DNA of 64,000 nucleotides from Octopus vulgaris (lineage: Eukaryota): NCBI GenBank assembly GCA_951406725.2, contig OX597823.1, positions 33,852,001 through 33,916,000 on the forward strand, read 5' to 3'. Of the stretch, positions 14,600-62,814 are shown piece by piece (positions within the stretch are counted from its first letter, which is position 1; every line of letters begins with the position of its first letter). The translations under genes and the position numbers were made by a program. The notes under the pieces were generated by a model. It had not been told where the DNA came from. It did no database searches and saw nothing but the letters and a program-made list of their open reading frames with translations.

Positions 14600-16070
14600 G
14601 TTATCAATTGGTTCTGGCACAACAACTTCAATAACATTGAATCCATTGTCTAAAAAGTCAACAAGTGGTTTTATATCAATCATAACTTTTGGCATATAGC
14701 TTTTAAGGAGCAACAATCATTCTAACATTACAAATGAACTTCCCTAGCTTGTCTTTAATATTTTTTATTAATTACTATGTGCGATCATGTTCTTCTCTAA
14801 TGTGTTTCTGAAGTATTTGTTGTTTAGTTTTTTTGTTTGTTTTTTATGGTGACCTGAAATGAACTGACAATTATTCTCATCTTCATCTTCATCATCATCA
14901 TCATCATTGTCATCATCACACTGGCATGGGTTGGACAGTTCGGCTGGAATGAGGGAGGTGGCCTTTGTGCCAGACACTGAGAGGCTCAAACATGGCAGAA
15001 GCCATGGCAGAACAGGTGTCTTGCTGGAAAGGATACCAATGCTTGAAGAATTTCCAGCAAAACGGTCTTCTGCAACAGGAAGTATTTCACTGAATTTTAG
15101 TTTGTTGCAAACCAACATTGTTATCAACCACATTGATAACATTGGAATCTACCTTTTGATCATCATCCTGGAATGTATCTTCAACCTTCTCATCATTATT
15201 GCAAGGGTCGTTAATTAAATTGAATTCATCAGAATTTAGTTCAGTTTTCATGTAAGCATCATCACAAACAGCCAAGTGAAGACCATGTGCATTACACAGA
15301 CGATGCTCATAGTTCCAATCCTTACCAATTTTAACTATGAAACTTGGTCCATCAGTTACAACTGCAACTTTATGTTCTTTACTAAATCAAGGAAGAATTC
15401 AGGAAGTTTCTTTTCAAAAAATTCAAAGATTTCTTTTACGGTAGGCTCAGCATGGCTGGGATTGAAGCTCAGTCTCACTGTCTGGTTCCTTGGGCAAGTG
15501 TCTTCTACCATAGCCTCAGACTGATTAGTGCCTTGTGAATTTGGTAGCCAGAAACTGTTATGTGTGTGTGTGTGTGTGTCCCACCACCACTTGACACTGG
15601 TGTTGGTTTGTTTACATCCCTGTAGCTTAAGTGTTTGGCAAAGGAGTCTGAGAGAATTAATTATCAGACTTAAAATAAGTGCTGGGGTTGATTTGTTTGA
15701 CTAAAATCCTTCAAAGTAGTGCTCTAGCATGGCCACAATCCAATGATGGAAACAAGTCAATGATAAAAGAAGAAAAGCTTTCATAAATTCTAATTATTCC
15801 TAAACTCCAGAATTTACTAAACGATGAATAAAGATTCAAATATCTGCAATTACACAAAGATGCTTCTTCAGCTAAACTTTTCAGAGTCCTTTCTTTTAGT
15901 TATTTCTCAAAGATCTATTATATTTTTTAAAAAACCATATTGATATTGCACCATTTTCTTAATGAGAACCATTCTTTGTTAAAACCAAGCCTTCATCTGT
16001 AATAGCTTTCTAAAGAAAAGCATTTTTAATTATCACATTCATAGAAAATCCATTAATAGCAACACATCTG
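14600..16070 (-). mobile_element. Fossil hAT-superfamily transposase, split by two younger insertions
   Basis: Minus-strand pieces in order: CVAINGFSMNVII...; SLAEEASLCNCRYLNL...FWSLGIIRI; VAVVTDGPSFIVKIG...HRLCNAHGLHLAVCD (hAT TDG and CxAHxLHL motifs); KTS*GSSFVMLE*LL (TRWNS-like). Confidence 0.8.
15441..15775 (+). mobile_element. tRNA-derived SINE family 2 inserted in the hAT fossil
   Basis: ccttgggcaagtgtcttctac...gcatggccacaatccaatga matches the 48503-48916 copy. Confidence 0.75.
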
Positions 16071-16085
16071 GAGACTATTTCTTTT

Positions 16086-16402
16086 GTGGTGTCAGTCTAA
16101 TTTTGTCTATGGTGTCAGTCTAATTTTGTCTGTGGTGTCAGTCTAATTTCGTCTGTGGTGTCAGTCTAATTTCGTCTGTGGTGTTAGTCTAATTTCATCT
16201 GTGGTGTCAGTCTAATTTCATCTGTGGTGTCAGTCTAATTTCTTCTGTGGTGTCAACCTAATTTCGTCCGTGGTGTCAGTCTAATTTCTTCCGTGGTGTC
16301 AGTCTAATTTCTTCTGTGGTGTCAGTCTAATTTCGTCTATGGTGTCAGTCTAATTTCTTCTGTGGTGTCAGTCTAATTTCTTTTGTGGTATCAGTCTAAT
16401 TT
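16086..16402. repeat. 23-bp minisatellite, about 14 copies
   Basis: Unit gtggtgtcagtctaatttcttct; first two units start at 16086 and 16109; no spacers. Confidence 0.95.
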
Positions 16403-16569
16403 TCCATAAGGCTGTCTAATTCCTAAGCTTCTTTTCCAACCATGTGTTTATGAGTTCAGTCTCACTGTGTAGTATCTTGAGCATATGTCTTCTATAGCTC
16501 TGGATGAAGCAAACTGTTGTGAGTGGATTTAGCAGACAGAAACTGAAAGAAGTCTGTTGTATGTGTGTA

Positions 16570-23860: not shown

Positions 23861-24339
23861 TAAATGCTAGCTATAACTTTCCCTATAGAATTTTTAAGGA
23901 AAAGTTCCTCTATAAGTATAAAAAAAATAACATTCTAATAATCTTTAAAACAATGTCAGCATATTTCTGATGCTTTTAGGATTAAAAAAAAAAAAATCCT
24001 GTCTCATTATAATAATACTGTAGCAGAGACTCATTCGAAAGACAAAATACAATTTGGACCACCCCAACAATATGCTTGTATGTAAAAATAGCAGAAGGAA
24101 CACTTTTAGTCTAAATATTCTTTGTAATACAGTAAGAAAGAAAGACAGAGAATTCCTATATCTAATAAATAGGCACTTCTGCAAGTTGGACAGAAACTGA
24201 ATTCTTTAACACAAATACAGTGGAGGTTGCTACTTTAATATCAAAGACTAGCAAAAGAATTCATATAAATGTAACCATCTCAATGTAACTACTATATTAC
24301 TTTTTTTGCCCTTTCAATAGAAACTGCTTTCTATGAAGC

Positions 24340-24849: not shown

Positions 24850-26020
24850 GGAATCCTCCCATTCATCATAGTCCTTCAGAATATAACAGAAGTTTAAGTC
24901 CATTTGTCTGTGAGAATTGCTATATGCTGATGATCCTGTTCTTGTAGCTAAATCTGTAGTAGAATTAGAAAAGTAATTCCAAGTGTGGAAGCAAAGCCTG
25001 GAATCAAAAGACTCAAAGTTTACTAAGCAAAATCAAAATTTTAGTAAACAGGAAAACAGACAAGACACTTGCTTTTGCTTTCATTGGGGAAATGGCTTTG
25101 ATATAGAGAAAAAGATTAGATATAAATTACATACATTTCACCCAATGTAAACTTTTGACACACAAATAGTGCAGTGGTGCCACAGGCATATCACCAGAGA
25201 AAGTAGGCTTTGTATGTGGAAGAGACATGAGAACAATAAGTACTAAAAGCACACAGGAAATAGATTTCTTAAAGTCCTGTCAGGAATTCTAGGAGCAGTA
25301 GATATCTTCTGTTATGTAGATAGCCTAATTAGCAGTGGAGGAGGTTGTTCTGAAAGTATTGTTGCTAGAATAAAAACAGGATGGAGTAAGTACAGATAGC
25401 TGTTATTGCTGTTGATAAAAGGTTTCTCTTTCAAAATGAAAGGCAGATTGTGTGATGTTTGAGCATGAACTGTAACACTACATGGTAGTGAGATGCAGGC
25501 CTTGAATGCAGAGGACAGAGGACAGGAAGAAACAAAGCTAGCATAAAAATTGTTTGCCAACATAACATGGCAGTCCTGGTTTAGGATGAATGTTGCTGTA
25601 ATTTAGCCCCAGGAGACATCTTCTCCAGCTGGCTATACGACATGATCTGTGTCCTTATATTTTCAAACAAGAGCATTTAACACCTCCACTCAGCTCAAAA
25701 CAATATCTGTGTATCATGATTTCTAAACCAGGACTGCCATGTTATGTTGGCAAACAATCTTTACTCTAAAGTACTGTTGCTGAATGTATCTCTTGTTATA
25801 AGATTTTAAAATAGTAATTTTCTAAAGCTAGCATACTCCATCAGATGTACAAAGTCAGTGAACATAAACAGCAAAATACAAATGTGTTGAGAAAAAATTT
25901 GAGCATAAGGGGAATGTGCAAGAGAGAAGACTGTGCTGATCAAGTGATACATATTGATGGAGACAACTGCATAAATAAATACTGATTGCTTAAGGTTGAT
26001 GGAATTTGTGAAGAGGGAAG
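24850..26020 (+). mobile_element. Degenerate RTE LINE fragment interrupted by a fold-back element
   Basis: ctatatgctgatgat (LYADD), caagtgtggaagcaaagcctggaatcaaaa and catggtagtgag match the other RTE copies. Confidence 0.8.
25546..25823. mobile_element. Fold-back element family B, short copy with 12-bp TSD
   Basis: Arms ttgtttgccaacataacatggcagtcctggtttag / ctaaaccaggactgccatgttatgttggcaaacaa; aaagctagcata duplicated at 25534-25545 and 25824-25835. Confidence 0.85.
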
Positions 26021-26792: not shown

Positions 26793-28866
26793 GAGAGAGG
26801 CTTGGAAAAGCCATTATGAAAGACTGCTGAACATGGAGAGTGAATGGGAGGAGAAGAGCCTGCCAAATGTTGACCCAGTAGAGGAACCAGCTATCCGAAT
26901 AGACACCTCCCTGGTAGATAAAGCAATTAAGGGTACAAAGCCAAGAAAAGCACCTGGCCCATCAGAAATCACTGCTGTGATGCTTAAAATATCTGGTAGT
27001 GTGGGCTATGGCCTAGTCACCCACATTGTAAACCAGGTAGTTCATGATGGAGTCATACCCAATGACTAGTGTAGCAGCACCATAGTCAACTGCTACAAAG
27101 GTTATGCTCTAGATAGAAAAAAACTACAGGGGTATAAAACTGCTTGATCAGGTGATGAAGGTCGTGGAGAGGGTCATAGCCCATCTCATTAGGGAGAGAG
27201 TCTGCTTAGATGAGATGCACTTCAGTTTTGTGCCAGGTAGAAGCACCACTGATGCTGTATTCCTAGCTAAAGATAAACCCCTATACTTAGCTTTTGTGGA
27301 CTTGGAGAAAACCTTCGACAGGGTCCCCCAATCCCTTATTTGGTAGGCAATGCCGAAACTGGAGATTGACAAATGGTTAATAAGGGCTGTACAGGCCCTA
27401 TACAGAGAGGCCGTTAGTAAGGTTAGGATTGGCAATGAGTATAGTGAAGAATTCCAGGTAGAAGTAGGGGTCCACCAAGGATCATCCCTCAGCCCTCTTT
27501 TATTAATCATAGTCCTCCAGGCAATAACAGAGGAATTCAAGGCGGGTTGCTCCTGGGAGCTCCTCTATGCAGTTGACCTGGCCCTCATAGCAGAATCACT
27601 ACCAGAACTAGAGAAGAAATTTCAGGTTTGGAAGCAAGGTTTACAATCAAAAGGCCTTAGAGTCAATGTAGCAAAGATCAAAGTTCTAGTAAGTAGGAAG
27701 GTGAACACATCACACACCCCTGCTGGCCCTGCTCGATCTGTAGAAAAGGTGTAGGCAGAAACTCTATCAGATGTACCCAGTGTAAGCTATGGACACATAA
27801 GAGGTGCATCAATATCAAAGGAAGATTAACCGGGAAGATAGCTTTCATGTGCGACAGATGCACAGGGGCAATAAACACCACAGATGCTCAGAGAAGAGAT
27901 TCCATCACACTCCAGGGGGAGAAACTTGAAGTAGTTGATAGCTTCTGCTACCTAGGTGACCAAGTTAGTAGTTGGGATGGATGCTCAATAAGAATAGCCT
28001 GGGCAAAGTTTAGAAAGCTTCTACACCTACTGGTGACAAAGGGCTTCTCGTTCAGAGTGAAAGGTAAATTGTATGATGCATGTGTGTGAACTGCCATGCT
28101 TCACGGCAGTGAAACATGGGCCATGACTGCAGAGGATATGTGTAGGCTCAAAAGAAATGAAGCTAGCAGCTGGATGTGTAATATCAGTGTGCACACAAAA
28201 CAGAGTGTAAGCGCCCTGAGAGAAATGTTAGACATAAGAAGCATTGAATGTGGCATGCAGGAGAGACGTTTGCGATGGCATGGTCATGTATTAGGGATGG
28301 ATGAGGAGAGATGTGTGAAGAAGTGCCACTTCCAAACAGTTGAAGGAATCCGGGGTAAAGGTAGACCCAGGAAGACATGGGATGAGGTGGTGAAGCTTGA
28401 GTTCTGAACGTTGGGCCTCACAGTAGCAATGACAGACCAAGACCTCTGGAGATATGCTGTGACTGCGAAGACCCAGCAAATAAAGTGAGTTCACAGCTGT
28501 ATCCTACACCAGTACCTTGGATCATAGGGCGACCTGCTATGCTTGAGGAGACCTATTGAGTCAAGTACATCAACATCAAAATAAAAATCAAATGGAAATT
28601 GTAGTTGTGATATCCATGCTGGTGGCATGTAAAAAGCACCAACCGATCATAGCCATTGCCAGCCTCCTCTGGCTCCTGTACCAGTGGCACGTAAAATGCA
28701 CCCACTACACTTACGGAGTGGTTGGCATTAGGAAGGGCATACAGCTGTAGAAACACTGCCAGATCAGACTGGAGCCTGGTGCAGCCTCCTGGTTTCCCAG
28801 ACCCCAGTTGAACCGTCCAACCCATGGCAGCATGGAAAATGGACGTTAAATGATGATGATGATGAT
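26793..28866 (+). mobile_element. 5'-truncated RTE-clade LINE, RT ORF pseudogene plus 3'UTR
   Basis: KAPGPSEI, FVPGRSTTDA, LAFVDLEKTFDRVP, GVHQGSSLSPLL, LLYAVDL, RRLRWHGHV, GRPRKTWDEVV; several stops and frameshifts; (GAT)n tail. Confidence 0.95.
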
Positions 28867-37975: not shown

Positions 37976-37984
37976 CTAGAATGA

Positions 37985-38222
37985 GATAACAAAGCCAAAG
38001 CTGTGAGGAAGGAGTTTTCAGGACATTTATAATGAAATAGTCTTACAGTTGTTTCTGGGATATTACGGATATCCCTTCATCAGAGATGGTGTGAGAAAAT
38101 ATTTGAGTTCAAATTATTATGGAAAAGGATATCCATAATATCCCAGAAACAGCTGTAAGACTATTTCATTATAAATGTCTTGAATACTCCTCACAGCCTT
38201 GGTTTTGATATTTCCTTCTGTC
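37985..38222. mobile_element. Fold-back hammerhead element, family C
   Basis: About 80-bp inverted arms (gacatttataatgaaatagtcttacag... / ...ctgtaagactatttcattataaatgtc). Confidence 0.8.
38041..38086 (-). ncRNA. Minimal hammerhead ribozyme motif
   Basis: tct-CTGATGA-a gggatat ccgta atatccc a-GAAA-caactg-TA-aga; the opposite arm keeps the palindromic acagctgt in stem III. Confidence 0.75.
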
Positions 38223-48289: not shown

Positions 48290-49494
48290 TTTAAATGATA
48301 ATGGAAAGAAACACACAGAGGGGTGTGTGTATGTACACAGGTTTGCTATTTTGGAGGATCGCTGCAACAAGAAGTGAAGATAAGTGTAGGGTCCATGAGA
48401 AAAAATCATTCATGACCATTTGCACATGCGGAAGTTGTCTGCAAGATGGATTTTCCGGATGCTCACATCTTTTCAGAAGCAGGAATGAGTCAATTGCACC
48501 CAGGCGTAGGAGTGGCTGTGTGGTAAGTAGCTTGCTTACCAGCCACATGGTTCTGGGTTCAATCCCACTGCATGGCACCTTGGGCAAGTGTCTTCTACTA
48601 TAGCCTCAGGCTGACCAAAGCCTTGTGAGCGGATTTGGTAGACGGAAACTAAAAAAAGCCTGTCTATATATATGTATGTGTGTGTATATGTTTGTGTGTC
48701 ATGTATGTGTGCGTATATGTTTGTGTGTCAACATCGCTTGACAACCGATGCTGGTGTGTTTACGTCCCCGTAACTTAGCGGTTCAGCAAAAGAGACCGAT
48801 AGAATAAGTACTAGGCTTACAAAGAATAAGTCCTGGGGTCGATTTGCTCGACTAAAGGCGGTGCTCCAGTATGGCCACAGTCAAATGACTGAAACAAGTA
48901 AAAGAGTAAAAGAGTAGGTTCTTTTGGCAATGTGCCAAGAAAATGAGGAGGACTTTTTCGGCAGATTTATCGCACAAGATAAAACATGGATCCATCAATA
49001 TGATCCTGAGACTAAAGTCCAGTTGAAGCAATAGAAGCATGACAACTCACCACCTCCAAAGAAGGCTTGTGTCCAATCCTCAGCAGGCAAGGTGATGCTC
49101 ACAGTCTTTTTGGACCAGCACGGAATAGTGATGATGGATTTTCTGGCAAAGGGCATCACATTTAATGGGGCATATTATGTTTCCCTGCTGCAGAAATTGT
49201 GGGACACCATCAAAATCCTTCCTCATCCCCCTTTCTCTCCCAGCCTCGCACCTCTTTCCAACAATGAAATCCTTTTTGAAGGGAAAGTACTTTTGGATGA
49301 CGATCAACTTATTTCTCCAGACGCAACCTACCGACTTGTAAAGATGAAGTCTTCACAGCTGCATATAGCAATGGGAGAAGTGTGTCACTATTGGAGGTAG
49401 CCATGTAGAGAAGGACTGATTATTATGACAAGTTTCGTTTATCCCAGTCCTTGGGAAGTGGGTCAGGTGAAATCTTTTATGAACACCCCTCGTA
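48290..49494 (+). mobile_element. mariner (DD34D) transposon remnant, internally deleted and split by a SINE
   Basis: HDHLHMRKLSARWI, DKTWIHQYDPETK, SAGKVMLTVF, PHPPFSPSLAP; terminus ttatgaacacccctcgTA. Confidence 0.9.
48503..48916 (+). mobile_element. Full-length tRNA-derived SINE family 2 (CORE-like ccttgggcaagt)
   Basis: tggctgtgtggtaag A-box-like, ggttcaatccc B-box, internal (TG)n, (AAAAGAGT)n tail. Confidence 0.85.
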
Positions 49495-49496
49495 TA

Positions 49497-49672
49497 CAGT
49501 TTTATATTTAAGAGATGAGGAATTATTTATATTATTTACATTTGATGGATATTTGTCCTCATCTTGTTTGTTGTTAACACAACGTTTCAACTGATATACT
49601 CTCCAGCCTTCATCAGGTGTCTTGAGGAAATTTCAAACCTGGGTTCTCATTCCTAAGGTATTTTCTATGTTG

Positions 49673-49735
<63 letters not shown>

Positions 49736-49970
49736 TCACTGCTTGGAATTCAACTCTTGGATTTCGAGTTCAATTCCAGGCAGTGACCTGAACAACAATA
49801 ATAATAATAATAATAACAACATAGAAAAATACCTTAGGAATGAGAACCCAGGTTTGAAATTTCCTCAAGACACCTGATGGAGGCTGGAGGGTATATCAGC
49901 TGAAGCGTTGTGTTAACAACAAACAAGATGAGAACAAATATCCATCAAATGTAAATAATGTACGTAATGT
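49497..49970. mobile_element. Fold-back hammerhead element, family D, with 12-bp TSD
   Basis: About 200-bp inverted arms including (ATT)n/(AAT)n; acccctcgtata at 49485-49496 versus acccctcctata at 49971-49982. Confidence 0.85.
49576..49621 (-). ncRNA. Minimal hammerhead ribozyme motif
   Basis: gacac-CTGATGA-a ggctg...cagtt-GAAA-cg-TT-gtgtt, stem III palindrome aacgtt; the plus-strand mirror at 49869-49914 has a mutated core. Confidence 0.8.
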
Positions 49971-50930
49971 ACCCCTCCTATAGTTATATTTCCGTTTTTA
50001 AGTGAAACTTGAACAAATTGATGAGAAGAAAGTGTTTGCCTTCAGTCTTTTAAGTCTAGTCCACTTCTCTTTTCCCTAAGGTCACTAGACAGATGGACAT
50101 TACCTGTCCTTCACAGCCAAATGAATGCAACAGGGTGGTCTTTAAATTGGAGTTAGTGGATAGCTAGATCTGCTCTACACATGATAGCAAGTGTCTGACA
50201 CAACTCCATAAATCAGCAATGCTTAGGCACAAGACAAGTGCATGCAGAACAGTTCTGTCACTCTGCATGCACCTCATGCTGGTCTAATGTAATATTTCCT
50301 ATATAACAATAGCTGATATGGTTGGGTGGTTGGTTGATTGGTTTCTCTAGTCATGCCATTATGAAGAGAGTAAATGAGAGATACAGAGGTGGAGAGAGAG
50401 AAATACAGAGAGAAAGGGAGAGAGAACATAACAAGTTAAATTCAAGAGAGGAGTGTTGAAATTGACAAGCCATGGTAGGAGCGGGGAGGTGAAGATGCTA
50501 AAAGTTTGTAGTTGACGAACAAAATACATGACATACACACACACACACACACACACACATACATACATACACACACAAAGAATCATAGAGGAGGAGGAAA
50601 TGACGTAGTTGTTGGTTGTTACTGAAAAAAGGCTCTGCAATAGTCAATATTTATTGCAAAGAATGGTTTCCTTTGATACTTTCCAAATTATGCTGTTCAT
50701 TGTCAGAGTAAATTTCTTTTGCTCCAATCCCAAGAGTATTGACTTACTTAAGAATTAATAACAAACTCTTCCAAATGAAGATATCACTGCAATTGCCACA
50801 ATAATACTATAACACACTTTTTTCTACATTGGTTGTATGAGAAAACAAGTACCAGTAGTATACTGGGGTCAATGGAATCAACTAGTCCCCCTTCCCCCAA
50901 ATTTTAGGTCTTCTGCCTATAGTAGAAAGG

Positions 50931-51192: not shown

Positions 51193-51195
<3 letters not shown>
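50987..51195 (+). mobile_element. SINE family 1 copy within (ATT)n
   Basis: Matches family 1 head, core and tail. Confidence 0.8.
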
Positions 51196-51233
<38 letters not shown>

Positions 51234-51273
51234 GATCATCATCATTATTATTATCATTATTATCATTATTATT

Positions 51274-51785
51274 GAGTGAGAGAGCAGTGCATGCCATCAA
51301 AGTGACACTGGAGTAAAATATATGAAGCCCAGTATACCCATCAAGACTACCCGTCTGATAAGAGTACACCAGGCACATGCATCACAACCATATATGCGTG
51401 CAACGTGGTGATCTCAGAATTTTCTTCTGGTCAAGTAGCCCATCCTGCTCAAAAGGTCCCTGAATGAGGAGTGTTTAAGGATGTTGAACGAACCACCCAT
51501 GTTTCCAAAGGTGAATTATCCAAACCTCAAAGAATTCCTTTCAACATGCAGCTATGATGCTCCCCTACTACTTCTGCTCATGATCAGAGATGCACATATC
51601 GTCAGCCACTATGGGACATACTCAACTGGTTAAGGTCAAACAACCGACAAGCAAATCTATGGTATTGAGCAGAATATTTGCTGTAGCCCATCTTTTATAC
51701 CATGACAAAACAATGTACATGATAACACTTTCAATCAGTTAAGATCAGAAGCCACGAGAGCCACTGTCTGGTACTGCATCAGGGC
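51274..51785 (-). mobile_element. About 0.5-kb non-coding interspersed element abutting (AAT)n
   Basis: Reverse complement of 59809-60355 with an internal deletion near 51415. Confidence 0.85.
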
Positions 51786-55737: not shown

Positions 55738-57806
55738 GTGGTTTATATGTTTTTACACATTCTCAAGACATCTATCAGTTTAGAGATTGTTTTTTTGGTT
55801 CTGTTTTTTGGTTATCTTTATTTACAGATCTTTACATTTAGATAATTTCTCTGTATTTCCTTTGGAGACACATTATCATTTGTTGAAATTGAGATTTTGA
55901 TTAGGAAGTATTTCCTTTCCTGCTTGTCCTTGACAACAATATCTGGTCAATAAACATTGATCACTTAGTCTGTTTTGGATTGGCATAGTCCAGAGTATGG
56001 TCTCTTTGTCATTCTCTGAGACCCTTTTTACCTAGTGTATGTTTCTACATATTTTCTCTGGTTTAGCATTGTTGTTGTTGCTTATCCCTGGTCAAGCAGA
56101 TAAAGATGATGAAAAACACTTCAGCCTTAAACATCCCTTCTTCATTCAGATATGGGGTATGTAAAACTTCATTATCTATTGTGACTTCATTTGAAGGAGA
56201 TCTGACTGCTATTTATAGGAGGTTGAGCAACTACATAGAGATTGCACCTTGGTGGCATTAACATCAACTGCACAAAAGCCCGCAACCGTATTATACCTGA
56301 ATATTTATTCTCTTGCAACCAAGAATCAGCAGCCAGTGAGTATCTGATTGATTTATTGCCATCTTCACATTTTCTGCTTCGTTCAGTGGAATTTGATGGG
56401 ATCATTGTAACCTTGTGTTGCAGTCAAAAATCAATTAATGTCAATTTTTGCTCTTAAAATTCCTCTGGTGCTTTCTCAGTATAAATCTCCCAATCTTGTT
56501 AGAAACTGGAGACATCGATGAAATGCTGTTAGTCCAGTATAAATATCATAAAAATATAACTCTCAGCTGAACTTGGGTGAATTTTGATGTTATGATATAA
56601 TGATTGTTGATGTACATTGAAAAGGTGGTTCTTACCTTTTGTCGATTTTTATCTCATATGTCACTTTCACCTGCCAAGGTACATTGAATACAGTTGTGTT
56701 GATTACACATAAGTGTTTTTAGATATATTTACAAGACATTGATTACTGAGCATTGATTTCCTGTCTCAAAACTGAATTTCTGTTCCAGTTAGTCTTTGTA
56801 ACATTTAAATTACATCAGTAAATTTGTATGTATTTTTTAATCCTTACCATTCACTAATGAAAGCATTGATTCAGTATCAACTTCATGGTAACTCCACTCC
56901 TATCTACAATCGATAAATCCCGATATCACTTGCTTTGTTAGCATTTATAGATGACATAGAAATATTGCATTAATTATTTTCTCCAAGTCCAAGCTCCCTT
57001 TCTCTATTTAAATCATTTATAAACAATTAATATCTTAAATCAATCAATAAATAGTATCAATGAATTCTAACTCACTGCTAGAGGAATTAGCCACCATGAT
57101 GCACAAAAATCGAAGCCAGAGAAATTCAATTAATAAAATACAAAAGACACACATGGTGCAAACAGGAATTCTTTTGACAAGAAGTTCTCTCTAAAATAAA
57201 GTTAAACTTTGTTGCCCCACCACCACCACCACTCTGTCACCACCACCACTCTGCCACTACCACCACTCTGCCACTACCACCACCACCACCACCAATCTGC
57301 CACCACCAAAGAGTGCTTAGTTTTTGACTCCAGATAACAACACTATTTTTTTTATTTTGGTTGCATCTCATCAATATGTAACATCTCATCTGATATGTAA
57401 CTGCATCATTAAATGGCCTTGTCATTTTGTTACGGACCCTAACCTTCCCTAGTATATTCTATACCTTGCTGAAGTACCTTGCTGTAGAATAGCCAAACAA
57501 CAGAATAACCTCAGTCAATGTCTTCCTTCTCCTACGAGTGTCTCAGAGTGTACCTAAAGGTAAAAAGGTCCCCTGTTCTTTACTCAAAACAATCAGGGAG
57601 ATTCTGATTTGGAGAGGTAATAGAAACCAGATGGCTCCCTTCTGTCTTATCACTGCAAAGCATCCTTTATCTCAACCCACCATATCACATTATTTATGAA
57701 GAAATAAGATGGCAAGCTGGTATTTCCTCTGTTTTTATGTTCCTTCAAATTCCACTGATGTTGACTTTGCCTTTCATTGTTTTTTGGGTTGATAAATTAA
57801 GTACCA

Positions 57807-58290
57807 TTAGAAATTACTATTTTTAAATCTCACAACGAGAGATCTTCAGCAACAGTACTTTGTAGTAAAGATTGTTTGCCAACATAACATGGCAGTCCTG
57901 GTTTAGGATGAATGTTGCTGTAATTTAGCCCTAGGGGACATCGTCTCCAGTTGGCTATACGACACGATCTGTGTCCTTATATTTTTGAACAAGGGAATCT
58001 AGCACCCCCATTCAGCTCAAAACAATATCTTTGTATTGCAATTTCCAGGTTATTTCCCTTCATCTAGCCAAACATTTATTTTGTGCTGATGAAGGGAAAT
58101 AACCCGGAAATTGCGATACACAGTTATTGTTTTGTGCTGAGCGGGAGTGCTAGATTCCCTTGTTCAAAAATATAAGGACAAAGATCGTGCCATATAGCCA
58201 GCTGGAGACGATGTCTTCTGGGGCTAAATTACAGCAACATTCATCCTAAACCAGGGCTGTCATGTTATGTTGATAAACAATCTTAACTCC
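57807..58290. mobile_element. Fold-back hammerhead element, family B, with 13-bp TSD, inserted in a family 1 SINE
   Basis: About 195-bp inverted arms; aaattaagtacca at 57794-57806 versus aaattatgtacca at 58291-58303; the SINE resumes after the insert. Confidence 0.9.
58082..58122 (+). ncRNA. Minimal hammerhead ribozyme motif, intact core
   Basis: tgtg-CTGATGA-a ggg aaataa ccc g-GAAA-ttgcga-TA-caca; stem I tgtg/caca; near-palindromic stem III. Confidence 0.8.
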
Positions 58291-59070
58291 AAATTATGTA
58301 CCAATTGCATACTGGGGTCGATCTAATCGACTGCCCCCTCCCCCAAAATTTCAGGATTTGTGCCTAGAGTAGAAAAGATTATTTATGAAGAAATGTTGAG
58401 AAATATCACTTTGTTTCATTTATGTTGAGATGTCTTTAGTTATTTGGTGATAAATCCTTTCTTATTGATCCATATTAACTTTAAGCATGATATCCACTAG
58501 CTAATGTTGATGTGTCTTTAATCATGCTATAATAATGACTCTCATAATTTTATATCTTAATCTTGTCATCAAATCCTGATCTTACGTTGATGTCTCTTTA
58601 ATCATATTACAATCAAAAATAATTTCTCGACAAAGATAATCTAATTACTCTCTTCTCTACTCTCTCATGACATGGTTTTAAAATTAATTTAGAGTTATAA
58701 TAAGTACACGTGATGTCCAGCATGATAATGATTCTGCAAGCTTGCCATAATGATGACAACAATGATGATGATGATGATGATGATGATGACGACGACGACG
58801 ACGACGACGATGGTGATGCTGATGCTGATGATCTCCTCGTCCTTCTCCTCCTATGAAATTGTTGGGTGGGGGGTGAATTACATTGACCTTAGTGCTCAAC
58901 TGGCCCTTATTTTATTGACCCTGAAGAGAGGAAAAGCAAAGTCGACCTCAGTGCGATTTGAACTCAGAATGTAAAGATGGAGGAAATGCTGCTGAGCCTT
59001 TTGTCCAATGTCCTAATGACTCCGCTAGCTTACTGTTTTAATAATAATAATGATGATGATAACAACAACG

Positions 59071-59808: not shown

Positions 59809-60355
59809 GCAGTACCAGGCAGTGGCTCTCATGGCTTCTGATCTTAACTGATTGGAAGTGTTATCATATACATTGTTTTGTCTTGGTATAAAAGATATGC
59901 TACAGCAAATATTCTGCTCAATACCACAGATTTGCTTGTCAGTTGCTTGACCATAAGCTAGTTAACCATGTCCCTTAGTGGCTGACAATATGTGCATCTC
60001 TGATCATGAGCAAAAGTAGTGGGAGAGCATCATAACCGTGTGTTGAAAGGAATTCTTAGAGGTTTGGATAATTCGCCTTTGGAAACATGGATGGTTCATT
60101 CAACATCCTTAAACAATCCTTATTCAGGGACCTTTTGAGCGGGATGGGCTACTCGACCAGAAGAAAATTCTAACTGGACCCCACTTGCAAAGTCATGCGC
60201 TGTTTTTCTTGATATGAGATCACCATATCGCGCACATATTGTTGTGATGCATGTGCCTGGTGTACCCTTACCAGATGGGTAGTCATAATGGGTATACTGG
60301 ACTTTGTATATTTTACCCCAGTGTCACTTTAATGACATGCACTGCTCTCTCACTC
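59809..60355 (+). mobile_element. About 0.55-kb non-coding interspersed element ending in (AAT)n
   Basis: Second copy of 51274-51785. Confidence 0.85.
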
Positions 60356-60380
60356 AATAATAATAATAATAATAATAATG

Positions 60381-60414
<34 letters not shown>

Positions 60415-60705
60415 TAATAATAATAATGATAATAATAATAATTAATAGCAATTAGCACATAGCTGGTCATAATATATGGTTCTGTGACTAAAACATATCC
60501 TCAATAATTTCTATAGACTTTATACTGCATAACTTCTAAAAAAACTGTACTGTATATATTACATAGAAAACTCTGAAAGTTAGTGATTGTAAATTGATAA
60601 AAGAAAAGATTGTCAGAGATTAATGAGTTCTAAGGAAACACTTCTGTTACCAAATTTCTACTGGAATATACTTTGTTTCAATTAATTTTGAAAATAATGA
60701 AGAAA

Positions 60706-61510: not shown

Positions 61511-61704
61511 AAGAAAAACTATTAAAATAACTCTGTATTAAGCAGGTATAGAGAACATAAATTAACATGAAGGTTTGATTGAAGGTTTTAATTAAAATCA
61601 TGTTAAAACAAGAAGTTTTTCTTATTGGAACAAGGGCAGTCTCAGGCAGGTTGTTATCAAAAGGGTTAAGAAGAATGTGACTAATGTTACTCATTGATTT
61701 TACA

Positions 61705-62064
61705 TTAGAAAATTACTATTTGTAAATCTCATAACAAGAGATATTCAGCAGTCCCGGTTGTTCTAATTTAGCCCCAGGAGACTTCGTCTCCAGCTGGTTA
61801 TGTGACACAATCTGTGTCCTTATATTTTCAAACTAGGGAATCTAGCACCCCAACTCAGCTCAAAGCAAATCGCAATTTCCAGGTTATTTCCCTTCATCAG
61901 CACAGAGTAATTTGTTTTGGGTTGAATGGAGGTGCTAAATTCCCTTGTTTGAAAACATAAGGACACAGATCATACTGTATAGCCAACTGGAGACGATATC
62001 TCCCGGGGCTAAATTACAGCAACATTCATCCTAAACCAGGACTGTTGGCAAACAATCTTTTCTA
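61705..62064. mobile_element. Fold-back hammerhead element, family B, with perfect 13-bp TSD
   Basis: cattgattttaca at 61692-61704 and 62065-62077; minus-strand core ctgtgCTGATGAagggaaataacctgGAAAttgcgaT at 61868-61905, lacking the 3' strand of stem I. Confidence 0.9.
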
Positions 62065-62814
62065 CATTGATTTTACACTTCACAAAAGAGCCTCCTATGA
62101 GTACTTACTGACTAAAAGTGTTAAGAAAAAAAGCAGTAAATCAATTACTGCTGCAGCTACAAAAGTTTCCCTACAAATTACATTTTGAATTGTTGGACTG
62201 TAAACATAAAGCAGCAGTAAAAAGGCATTAAGATCTCTATGGTGTCTGGGCATAAAAGCATACCTTTATATGATCACTGACGTTTTTGTTGAATGTCCCA
62301 TTATATAAATAAAACTACTTCTGACCTGGATGAACAAATGTATTCAGAATGCTATCACAGAAACAGCAGCATAATACAAAAAGAAGTCATCCCTACCAGG
62401 TATATTGAAAGCAATATCTTCCATTCCTACAGATGTTACCTCAGCAGAGCATTTCTCAAGACAATACACCATTTTATTAACGAATCTACTGCAACTATTC
62501 TTAGGTGTGTCATGAATCCCAGAATCCAAAAGACTGAGTTTAACCTGGTTTCCCTGTCATATAAAATGTGATTGGGCTTACAAACTCTCCCTGGATGGTA
62601 TGCCAGTCTCCTGTTGTGTTAACTTCCCAGCTCTTCCTGGAACTCATCAGAGTGAACTGGAACAACATAAAATGAAGTGTTTTGCTCAAGAACACAATTT
62701 GCATCTGTGTTAGGAGTGCAACAGACCAAACAGGCCACATATCCTGCAACCAGCTCCAGCCAAATAATGTAAGCATAATTTTACAATACTGTAACAAAGA
62801 TGCTCCACGTATAG

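Follow-up and report, generated by a model that had tools for sequence, protein, structure and literature searches.

A non-coding fold-back repeat with a predicted hammerhead in Octopus vulgaris has the insertion anatomy of Penelope-like elements

Insertions of Penelope-like elements (PLEs) typically include an inverted, 5'-truncated copy of the element and a tail of 30–40 bp at one end (Craig 2021, PMC8557442). In rotifer PLEs, inverted pLTRs are accompanied by a 31-bp tail and target-site duplications (TSDs) of 8–10 bp (Arkhipova 2013, PMC3846280), and inverted repeats of varying size with an end repeat of 34–37 bp have also been described (Schostak 2008, PMC2377424). Inverted pLTRs and 3' extensions are known peculiarities of the group (PMC8969392). 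The origin of the inverted repeats has been called "undefined" (PMC8557442) and "yet to be validated" (PMC11167929). In vitro, the protein of PAc (Poseidon, Anolis) cleaves and extends both target strands (Frangieh 2024, PMC11167929). On the RNA, synthesis begins at either of two sites flanking the tail, with no difference in start site between the target strands, and hammerhead cleavage is unnecessary (PMC11167929).

The hammerheads of PLEs are of type I, with a short stem I, an unpaired base 5' of stem II, a palindromic stem III and a highly conserved G10.1–C11.1 pair (Cervera and De la Pena 2014, PMC4209133). They are thought to act as dimers (PMC4209133, PMC6765202). Non-LTR retrozymes form head-to-tail tandems and circular RNA (PMC7229834; Li et al. 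2026, 10.64898/2026.07.22.740005). Coleoid expansions of Penelope have been described, in the passages of PMC8967140 cited here, with no mention of ribozymes. Our literature search found no publication that describes a fold-back family with a hammerhead from octopus; Repbase, Dfam or the supplements of Craig 2021 may nonetheless contain it.

Here we describe such a family in a 64-kb stretch of Octopus vulgaris DNA, the whole of which is called the window below. Three copies occupy positions 25546–25825 (copy 1, reversed), 57807–58290 (copy 2) and 61705–62064 (copy 3), and match one another at 84–91% identity in ungapped blocks. A BLASTN search of the window with all three returned no other full match, just a partial match of ~55–70 nt in another family, located at 1.1–1.7 kb. 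We propose, with a probability of about 0.8, that each insertion consists of two head-to-head, 5'-truncated, non-coding units of ~270 nt, likely written by a PLE reverse transcriptase/GIY-YIG protein acting in trans. This insertion layout is already published for PLEs, and the octopus family is a further example of it, not a new kind. With EN+ PLE insertions it shares the head-to-head arms, the variable inner truncation, the tail on one arm, the variable TSD and the hammerhead in the terminal repeat; it differs in that its arms enclose neither an ORF nor a direct pLTR, and no direct pLTR (partial tandem) was seen in any window copy. The tail is also longer, ~52–59 nt against 30–40 in PLEs, and the TSD measures 10–13 bp against 8–10 bp in rotifers (PMC8557442, PMC3846280). 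The positions of the features are collected in Table 1.

Table 1. Positions in the window of the three fold-back copies, their flanking duplications, host repeats and the predicted hammerhead
Feature	Position	Strand	Remarks	Basis
Copy 1 TSD, main-arm side	25534..25545		within decayed RTE-like LINE	direct repeat, paralogues
Copy 1 main arm	25546..25723	-	starts ~12 nt upstream of cut site; GAAA half-hammerhead only	arm alignment
Copy 1 tail arm	25723..25825	+	~101 nt	arm alignment
Copy 1 TSD, tail side	25824..25835		2-nt overlap with element end	direct repeat
Host SINE-like repeat, one part	57720..57806	-		window similarity and paralogues
Copy 2 left TSD	57794..57806		12/13 match to 58291-58303	direct repeat; single in SINE paralogues
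Copy 2 tail	57807..57858	-	absent from the other arm; fixed end at 57807, the ribozyme strand's 3' end	arm alignment, contigs
Copy 2 tail arm (inverted copy)	57807..58076	-	broken-core hammerhead; cut-site equivalent 58034/58033	arm alignment
Copy 2 main arm	58077..58290	+	ends at second preferred 3' end (57859-equivalent)	arm alignment
Predicted type I hammerhead, copy 2	58081..58123	+		descriptor and fold
Copy 2 right TSD	58291..58303			direct repeat of 57794..57806
Host SINE-like repeat, other part	58291..58383	-		window similarity and paralogues
Copy 3 left TSD	61692..61704			direct repeat
Copy 3 tail arm	61705..61905	-	internal deletions; hammerhead core at 61900 without stem I 3' strand	alignment
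Copy 3 main arm	61901..62064	+	start is cut site or 5-nt microhomology with stem I, indistinguishable	alignment
Copy 3 right TSD	62065..62077			direct repeat

Read on the hammerhead strand, the six arms align as parts of one ~270-nt unit; arm ends are given below in the coordinates of the copy 2 left arm. The layout is the same in all three copies: TSD, tail (~50 nt) with inverted arm, main arm, TSD. Exactly one arm of each copy carries the tail (3/3), as is characteristic of PLEs, and all three tail arms end at the equivalent of 57807. The main arms have their outer ends at 57866 (copy 1), 57859 (copy 2) and 57861 (copy 3). On its outer side the unit ends preferentially at two sites ~55 nt from each other, and its inner ends are variable. 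The inner (5') ends are 57907 and ~58046 in copy 1, 58076 in both arms of copy 2, which is symmetric with a 7-nt loop between its arms, and 58072 and 58035 in copy 3. An earlier reading of this DNA from sequence only (the sequence-only reading) had described one fixed terminus and an inverted arm of variable length. The terminus at 57807 is upheld in 3/3 copies, and arm length does vary, at the inner ends only; the second outer end, itself nearly fixed (57859–57866), had been missed. This second preferred end and the tail, both overlooked there, are the most diagnostic features of the repeat.

The same ends recur outside the window. Sequence matches were found in 20 sequencing runs with five organism codes, none recorded as RNA. 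We aligned the contigs of four runs to 57740–58090, three from organisms B, D and E and one from B that we guess to be RNA (X10), and obtained 12889, 7533, 8303 and 1551 aligned contigs, part of them on the flanking SINE. In the three DNA runs, 141, 119 and 149 contigs depart at the tail end (before 57811) into unlike flanks. Among the 32 contig pieces listed of 30,611, 12 continue for at least 50 unlike letters at the low end; by hand count, nine of these 12 ends fall at the two preferred sites (four at 57811–57814, five at 57859–57866) and three elsewhere. Inverted, 5'-truncated copies, another PLE signature, are present in 3/3 window copies and at 13 of the 15 joints listed (of 60), where opposite strands meet at inner ends from 57811 to 58065; the other two are one skip and one go-back. 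The repeat is very abundant, with thousands of pieces in the contigs of three organisms. Its summed depth peaks at 24,000–50,000 times the single-locus depth, a ratio that is not a copy number. One 21-nt pattern had 0 matches in metagenome contigs.

The direct repeats that flank the copies are flush with the element ends and identical at 12/12 (copy 1), 12/13 (copy 2) and 13/13 (copy 3) positions. Random boundary pairs gave a comparable direct repeat in 65 of 20000 cases. In the paralogues of the RTE that hosts copy 1, the TSD stretch is single (2/2), and it is single in four of the five aligned paralogues of the copy 2 host, the fifth being gapped there; the direct repeats of copies 1 and 2 are therefore true TSDs. 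One RTE-like paralogue, at 27113–27751, carries RVT_1. Most named relatives of a neighbouring RTE protein are Octopus sequences, which makes an octopus host likely. For copy 3, a host match was sought within the window and none was found. These results confirm the three real copies with flanking repeats that had been claimed from the letters, as well as the resumption of the interrupted hosts, an RTE and a repeat that we take to be a SINE, beyond two of them. The claimed TSD length of 12–13 bp agrees with repeats of 12, 13 and 13 bp, but the edges share 2–3 nt with element sequence in copies 1 and 2, which extends the range to 10–13 bp. The three TSD sequences are unrelated to one another (n = 3), and 28 of their 38 bases are A/T compared with 63% A/T window-wide, a difference from which we claim no AT-rich target preference.

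Fold-backs are a known artefact of assemblies and libraries. It is scarcely credible that the present ones are assembly artefacts or chance palindromes, since the arms within a copy diverge by 5–21% and TSDs lie on either side. Runs X2 and X9 both cover the centre of copy 2, too, and have six of the 13 listed inversion joints in common. A DNA transposon with long terminal inverted repeats, whether a MITE or of Foldback type, would likewise have long inverted arms, no ORF and a very high copy number. We consider this origin very improbable, because the ends are asymmetric, the TSD varies, arm length varies at the inner ends, and a PLE-type hammerhead lies on one strand. That the repeat is not a MITE, as the sequence-only reading held, is borne out by the one-sided tail, the variable TSD length and the lack of symmetric TIRs. 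In annotation, it would be labelled a MITE or unknown.

The Penelope-like origin suggested earlier is supported, in that a non-coding, hammerhead-bearing unit shows PLE insertion anatomy. We propose that a PLE protein nicks the two target strands ~10–13 bp apart, and that cDNA synthesis along the hammerhead-strand RNA then starts from each free 3' end. One cDNA would be primed at the tail end (57807) and the other ~55 nt upstream, at the internal site (57859–57866). The two cDNAs would halt at variable points and then be joined, often through 0–6 nt of microhomology, before repair fills in the TSD. Staggered nicks together with dual priming would give exactly the order TSD, tail arm, inverted main arm, TSD. 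The template would often be uncut RNA, with the hammerhead serving as a family badge whose cleavage is dispensable for insertion, and the source would probably be a short ORF-less transcript that starts just upstream of the hammerhead.

The repeat resembles PAc in its two 3' start sites around a tail downstream of the hammerhead, in the use of both strands and in an uncut RNA template. A small stem-loop predicted near 57854–57865, loosely like the AC-rich stem-loop of PAc, carries the second start site of the repeat. The two systems differ in that this region is the start of the ORF in PAc, whereas the octopus repeat is non-coding, and in that the octopus sites are deduced from anatomy and those of PAc were determined in vitro. 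Furthermore, and against the proposed route, the start site in PAc is alike for both strands, while the octopus repeat has exactly one tail in 3/3 copies.

Alternatively, with the same PLE enzyme, one cDNA or RNA could snap back and prime synthesis of the second arm on itself, a route proposed for rotifer Penelope (PMC3846280). The symmetry of copy 2 around a 7-nt loop would suit this route, and offsets of ~40 nt between inner ends, described below, fit a fixed fold-back loop. However, each arm of copy 1 contains sequence that is missing from its partner, so neither arm is a copy of the other and simple snap-back is excluded for copy 1. Arm-unique sequence is also present at three joints whose lower inner ends (57811, 57843 and 57843) lie inside the tail. 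The arms differ at 41 of 342 non-CpG sites, compared with 1 of 38 in the TSD pairs, a weak contrast (p 0.048) that is subject to bias from the picking of TSDs. On this evidence snap-back seems unlikely, and we retain dual priming as the proposed route.

The hammerhead that gives the family its badge was located with a strict type I descriptor, which matched two sites in the window, 58086 (+) and 49616 (−), both within fold-backs, and matched once in 60 shuffled windows. A second fold-back family, at 49497–49970, has the same layout. The whole motif is present in one of the six arms, the right arm of copy 2 (58086, +). Here the predicted hammerhead has intact core boxes, with a 5-bp stem I, CUGAUGA at 58086 and GAAA at 58107. 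Stem II has 3 bp and, at its base, an A and a G that do not pair, and stem III has 2 bp and a near-palindromic loop; the predicted cut is at 58118/58119. The core is defective in the other copies (Table 1) and, through an indel, in the left arm of copy 2. The claim that a hammerhead stands at the fold-back centre each time thus holds loosely as to its placement, but the strict descriptor is satisfied by one arm in six. No hammerhead family of Rfam was found in the window (E up to 1) or in copy 2 (E up to 10), and the Rfam matches obtained were to microsatellite or hairpin miRNA models, below threshold.

The motif is like the hammerheads of PLEs (PMC4209133) in being of type I, with a short stem I, an unpaired base on the 5' side of stem II and a palindromic stem III that is unstable as a monomer. 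It differs from them in its 3-bp stem II and in the absence of the G10.1–C11.1 pair that closes stem II, an A·G mismatch standing in its place in copy 2. The monomer fold has a calculated energy of +0.4 kcal/mol, and is therefore unstable, whereas self-pairing of stem III gives −4.3 to −9.2 kcal/mol (−6.5 for the self-duplex compared with this monomer). Apart from the missing pair, these calculated values fit the dimer action proposed for PLE hammerheads. The arms carry three stem III variants, TTGCGA, TTGCAA and TCATGA, each of which may be one or two CpG-type changes away from a single perfect palindrome. Conservation of the core relative to its flanks is a weak test in genomic copies, because inserted copies decay neutrally.

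Four of the six arms run upstream past the hammerhead cut site, so uncut RNA was the template at least in those cases. We could not substantiate the earlier suggestion that the RNA is processed by the ribozyme before insertion. The summed depth in run X2 falls across the hammerhead from 527k through 222k and 52k to 21k, with a roughly tenfold drop at the cut site. We rejected this drop as a proof of cleavage, since the reference has private changes there and the core is present in only three of the six window arms.

A retrozyme-like cycle would involve tandem or read-through RNA cut by dimeric hammerheads, with a monomer of ~227 nt, possibly circular, as the template. The main arm of copy 3, whose start may be the cut site (Table 1), would agree with such a cycle, as would the depth drop and the single go-back contig, which returns from 58064 to 57851 over 214 nt as in a short tandem unit. 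The stretch from the cut site to the tail end also folds as a closed RNA with a z of −3.36 (0 of 200 shuffles; −1.64 for the other strand). Against this, four of the six arms pass the cut site, the other four arms folded give z values of −0.03 to −2.63, and the depth drop is confounded by the private changes of the reference. No go-back joint was found among those listed for the RNA-like run. The copies are, moreover, inverted and not tandem. Like non-LTR retrozymes, the repeat has a non-coding unit within 170–400 nt, a type I hammerhead, self-paired RNA, a TSD longer than 4 bp and a proposed dependence on PLEs; in contrast to them, a tandem layout is seen in none of the three window copies, and of the joints listed, 13 are inverted and one is tandem. 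We regard a cycle of this kind as improbable, and insertion from RNA that is often uncut as the better account.

The predicted RNA fold was also compared between copies. Within the family, 0 of 16 pairs of the downstream fold show compensatory changes, and comparison of the downstream block with the sister family gave covariation at 1 of 10 and 1 of 7 pairs, which is uninformative. The idea that the two arms come from different subfamilies was dropped, as 11 shared-state columns conflict. The DNA copies have no strand bias of G>A versus C>T (16:12, p 1.0).

The nature of the source element is less certain than the anatomy of its insertions. Three of the six arms stop within a 5-nt span (58072–58076) just upstream of stem I, as expected were the RNA to start there, and none extends beyond it. 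Because of these stops, the closed RNA fold and the 214-nt go-back contig, a short ORF-less source is favoured, related in kind to non-LTR retrozymes although their defining tandem layout is absent. The repeat is likely to be non-autonomous. No ORF with PLE-type RT and GIY-YIG lies between the TSDs of the copies, and a Pfam scan of 150 of the 237 stop-free frames of the window detected no PLE-type domain, only RTE-type RVT_1, PHD and a transposase. Non-autonomous PLEs of Chlamys such as MRC1 (PMC8557442) are likewise ORF-less and moved by PLEs; they differ in having pLTRs and head-to-tail arrays, in belonging to an alga, and in a 3' end like that of autonomous families.

The most serious competitor to a separate non-autonomous family, though we give it clearly less than even odds, is that an autonomous PLE left the copies as short end pieces (pLTR fragments) that lack their 5' part. 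Truncation at the 5' side affects most PLE insertions, and minimal hammerheads occur mostly singly or as opposite-strand pairs 100–700 bp apart (PMC4209133). In addition, our contig view ends at 58065, at a lesion and edge of the reference, which would hide sequence farther upstream. The common stop of three arms at 58072–58076, with none longer, argues against truncated ends, as does the one contig that goes back in the manner of a short tandem. Stops also interrupt all frames of the arm on both strands, including a stop common to the arms that ends a 28-codon frame.

The inner ends of the proposed non-autonomous unit may hold a further regularity. Their offsets at the 13 listed opposite-strand joints are 39, 40, 40, 43, 64, 96, 105, 134, 135, 137, 138, 151 and 157 nt, and those in copies 1 and 3 are 139 and 37; copy 2, with an offset of 0, was excluded. 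Ten of these 15 offsets gather around 40 or 136 nt, inside two windows of 8 nt (p 0.00005–0.07 over four data choices and two nulls), where the pattern and the window width were picked post hoc and the joints come from the 15 listed of 60. Both peaks would result if one arm were ~80–95 nt longer than the other; the arms measure 101 and 181 nt in copy 1, and 266 and 175 nt in copy 3.

With a short, abundant, ORF-less family of this kind, thousands of insertions can be compared in their start sites, TSDs and inner ends and in the subfamilies of their arms, which makes it a useful test set. It is a rather speculative reading, taken as a whole, that the repeat is a dedicated ORF-less parasite of PLEs with more than ten thousand insertions, whose hairpins come from two coupled primings with a built-in ruler. 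If this were true, the family would be a high-resolution record of those steps of PLE insertion in vivo that are still unsolved and, together with its sister fold-back families, a major source of dsRNA behind octopus hyper-editing.

In octopus an exceptional proportion of loci could give long dsRNA, and the hyper-editing signal is strongest in octopus and frog (PMC5625713). The frog signal is partly explained by a palindromic repeat, and no such repeat is named for octopus in the passages of that study cited here (PMC5625713). It is possible that the present repeat is relevant to octopus RNA editing. A-to-I editing has a motif preference, which we compared with the base found 5' of each change. 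The DNA copies show no excess of A>G on the ribozyme strand (3:10), and so no sign of edited templates. For eight of the 35 differences listed within the element, the frequency in the guessed RNA run exceeds that in every DNA run by a factor of 12 or more, the RNA and DNA samples being different ones. These changes look like A-to-I editing of hairpin transcripts: four are A>G and four T>C, at levels of 5–24%, and none has a 5' G.

The organization of family B, the abundant ORF-less fold-back repeat with a predicted type I hammerhead, recurs in a second fold-back family at 49.5 kb (see table below). The direct repeat flanking this element is 12 bp long, with 11 of 12 bases matching, and the tail, present on one side only, measures about 30 nt. 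Each arm carries a minimal hammerhead motif (one at 49616, minus strand), the core being altered in the right arm, and in both arms a (TAA)n tract lies upstream of the ribozyme motif. A Transposase_1 remnant (partial DDE; 49035-49397, E 3e-11) lies a short way to the left of the element.

Further fold-back and related features in the window
Feature	Coordinates	Characteristics
Second fold-back family	49485-49982	Layout as in family B; direct repeats, one-sided tail; minimal hammerhead in both arms
Third fold-back	37978-38219	Hammerhead-like motif at 38083 (-)
Sister family of family B	1054-1778	Three arms; ~70-nt block common to both families
Decayed RTE-like LINE	27113-28404	RVT_1, then PHD finger

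In the third fold-back, stem II of the hammerhead-like motif comprises 7 bp with an A.A mismatch at the stem base, and the flanking repeat is just 7 bp. At 1261 (minus strand) the sister family contains what looks like a decayed hammerhead of type I, oriented as in family B. The block that the two families have in common may be the protein-binding signal.

Comparison of sequencing-run contigs with family B revealed eight A>G / T>C differences (57885-57956) specific to one run, which is guessed to be RNA; A-to-I editing of family B is their likely source. The inversion joint 57843/57980, a contig breakpoint linking opposite strands, reaches about 5x the single-locus depth in two organisms. One family B fold-back may therefore have been copied again, either as a unit or within a larger duplication.

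Relatives of the RTE-like LINE with the same domains carry Octopus names. Another repeat of about 600 nt occurs at 51193-51777 and 59809-60436, in opposite orientation and 8 kb apart, the copies being 83% alike. A minisatellite with a 23-bp period occupies 16008-16467.
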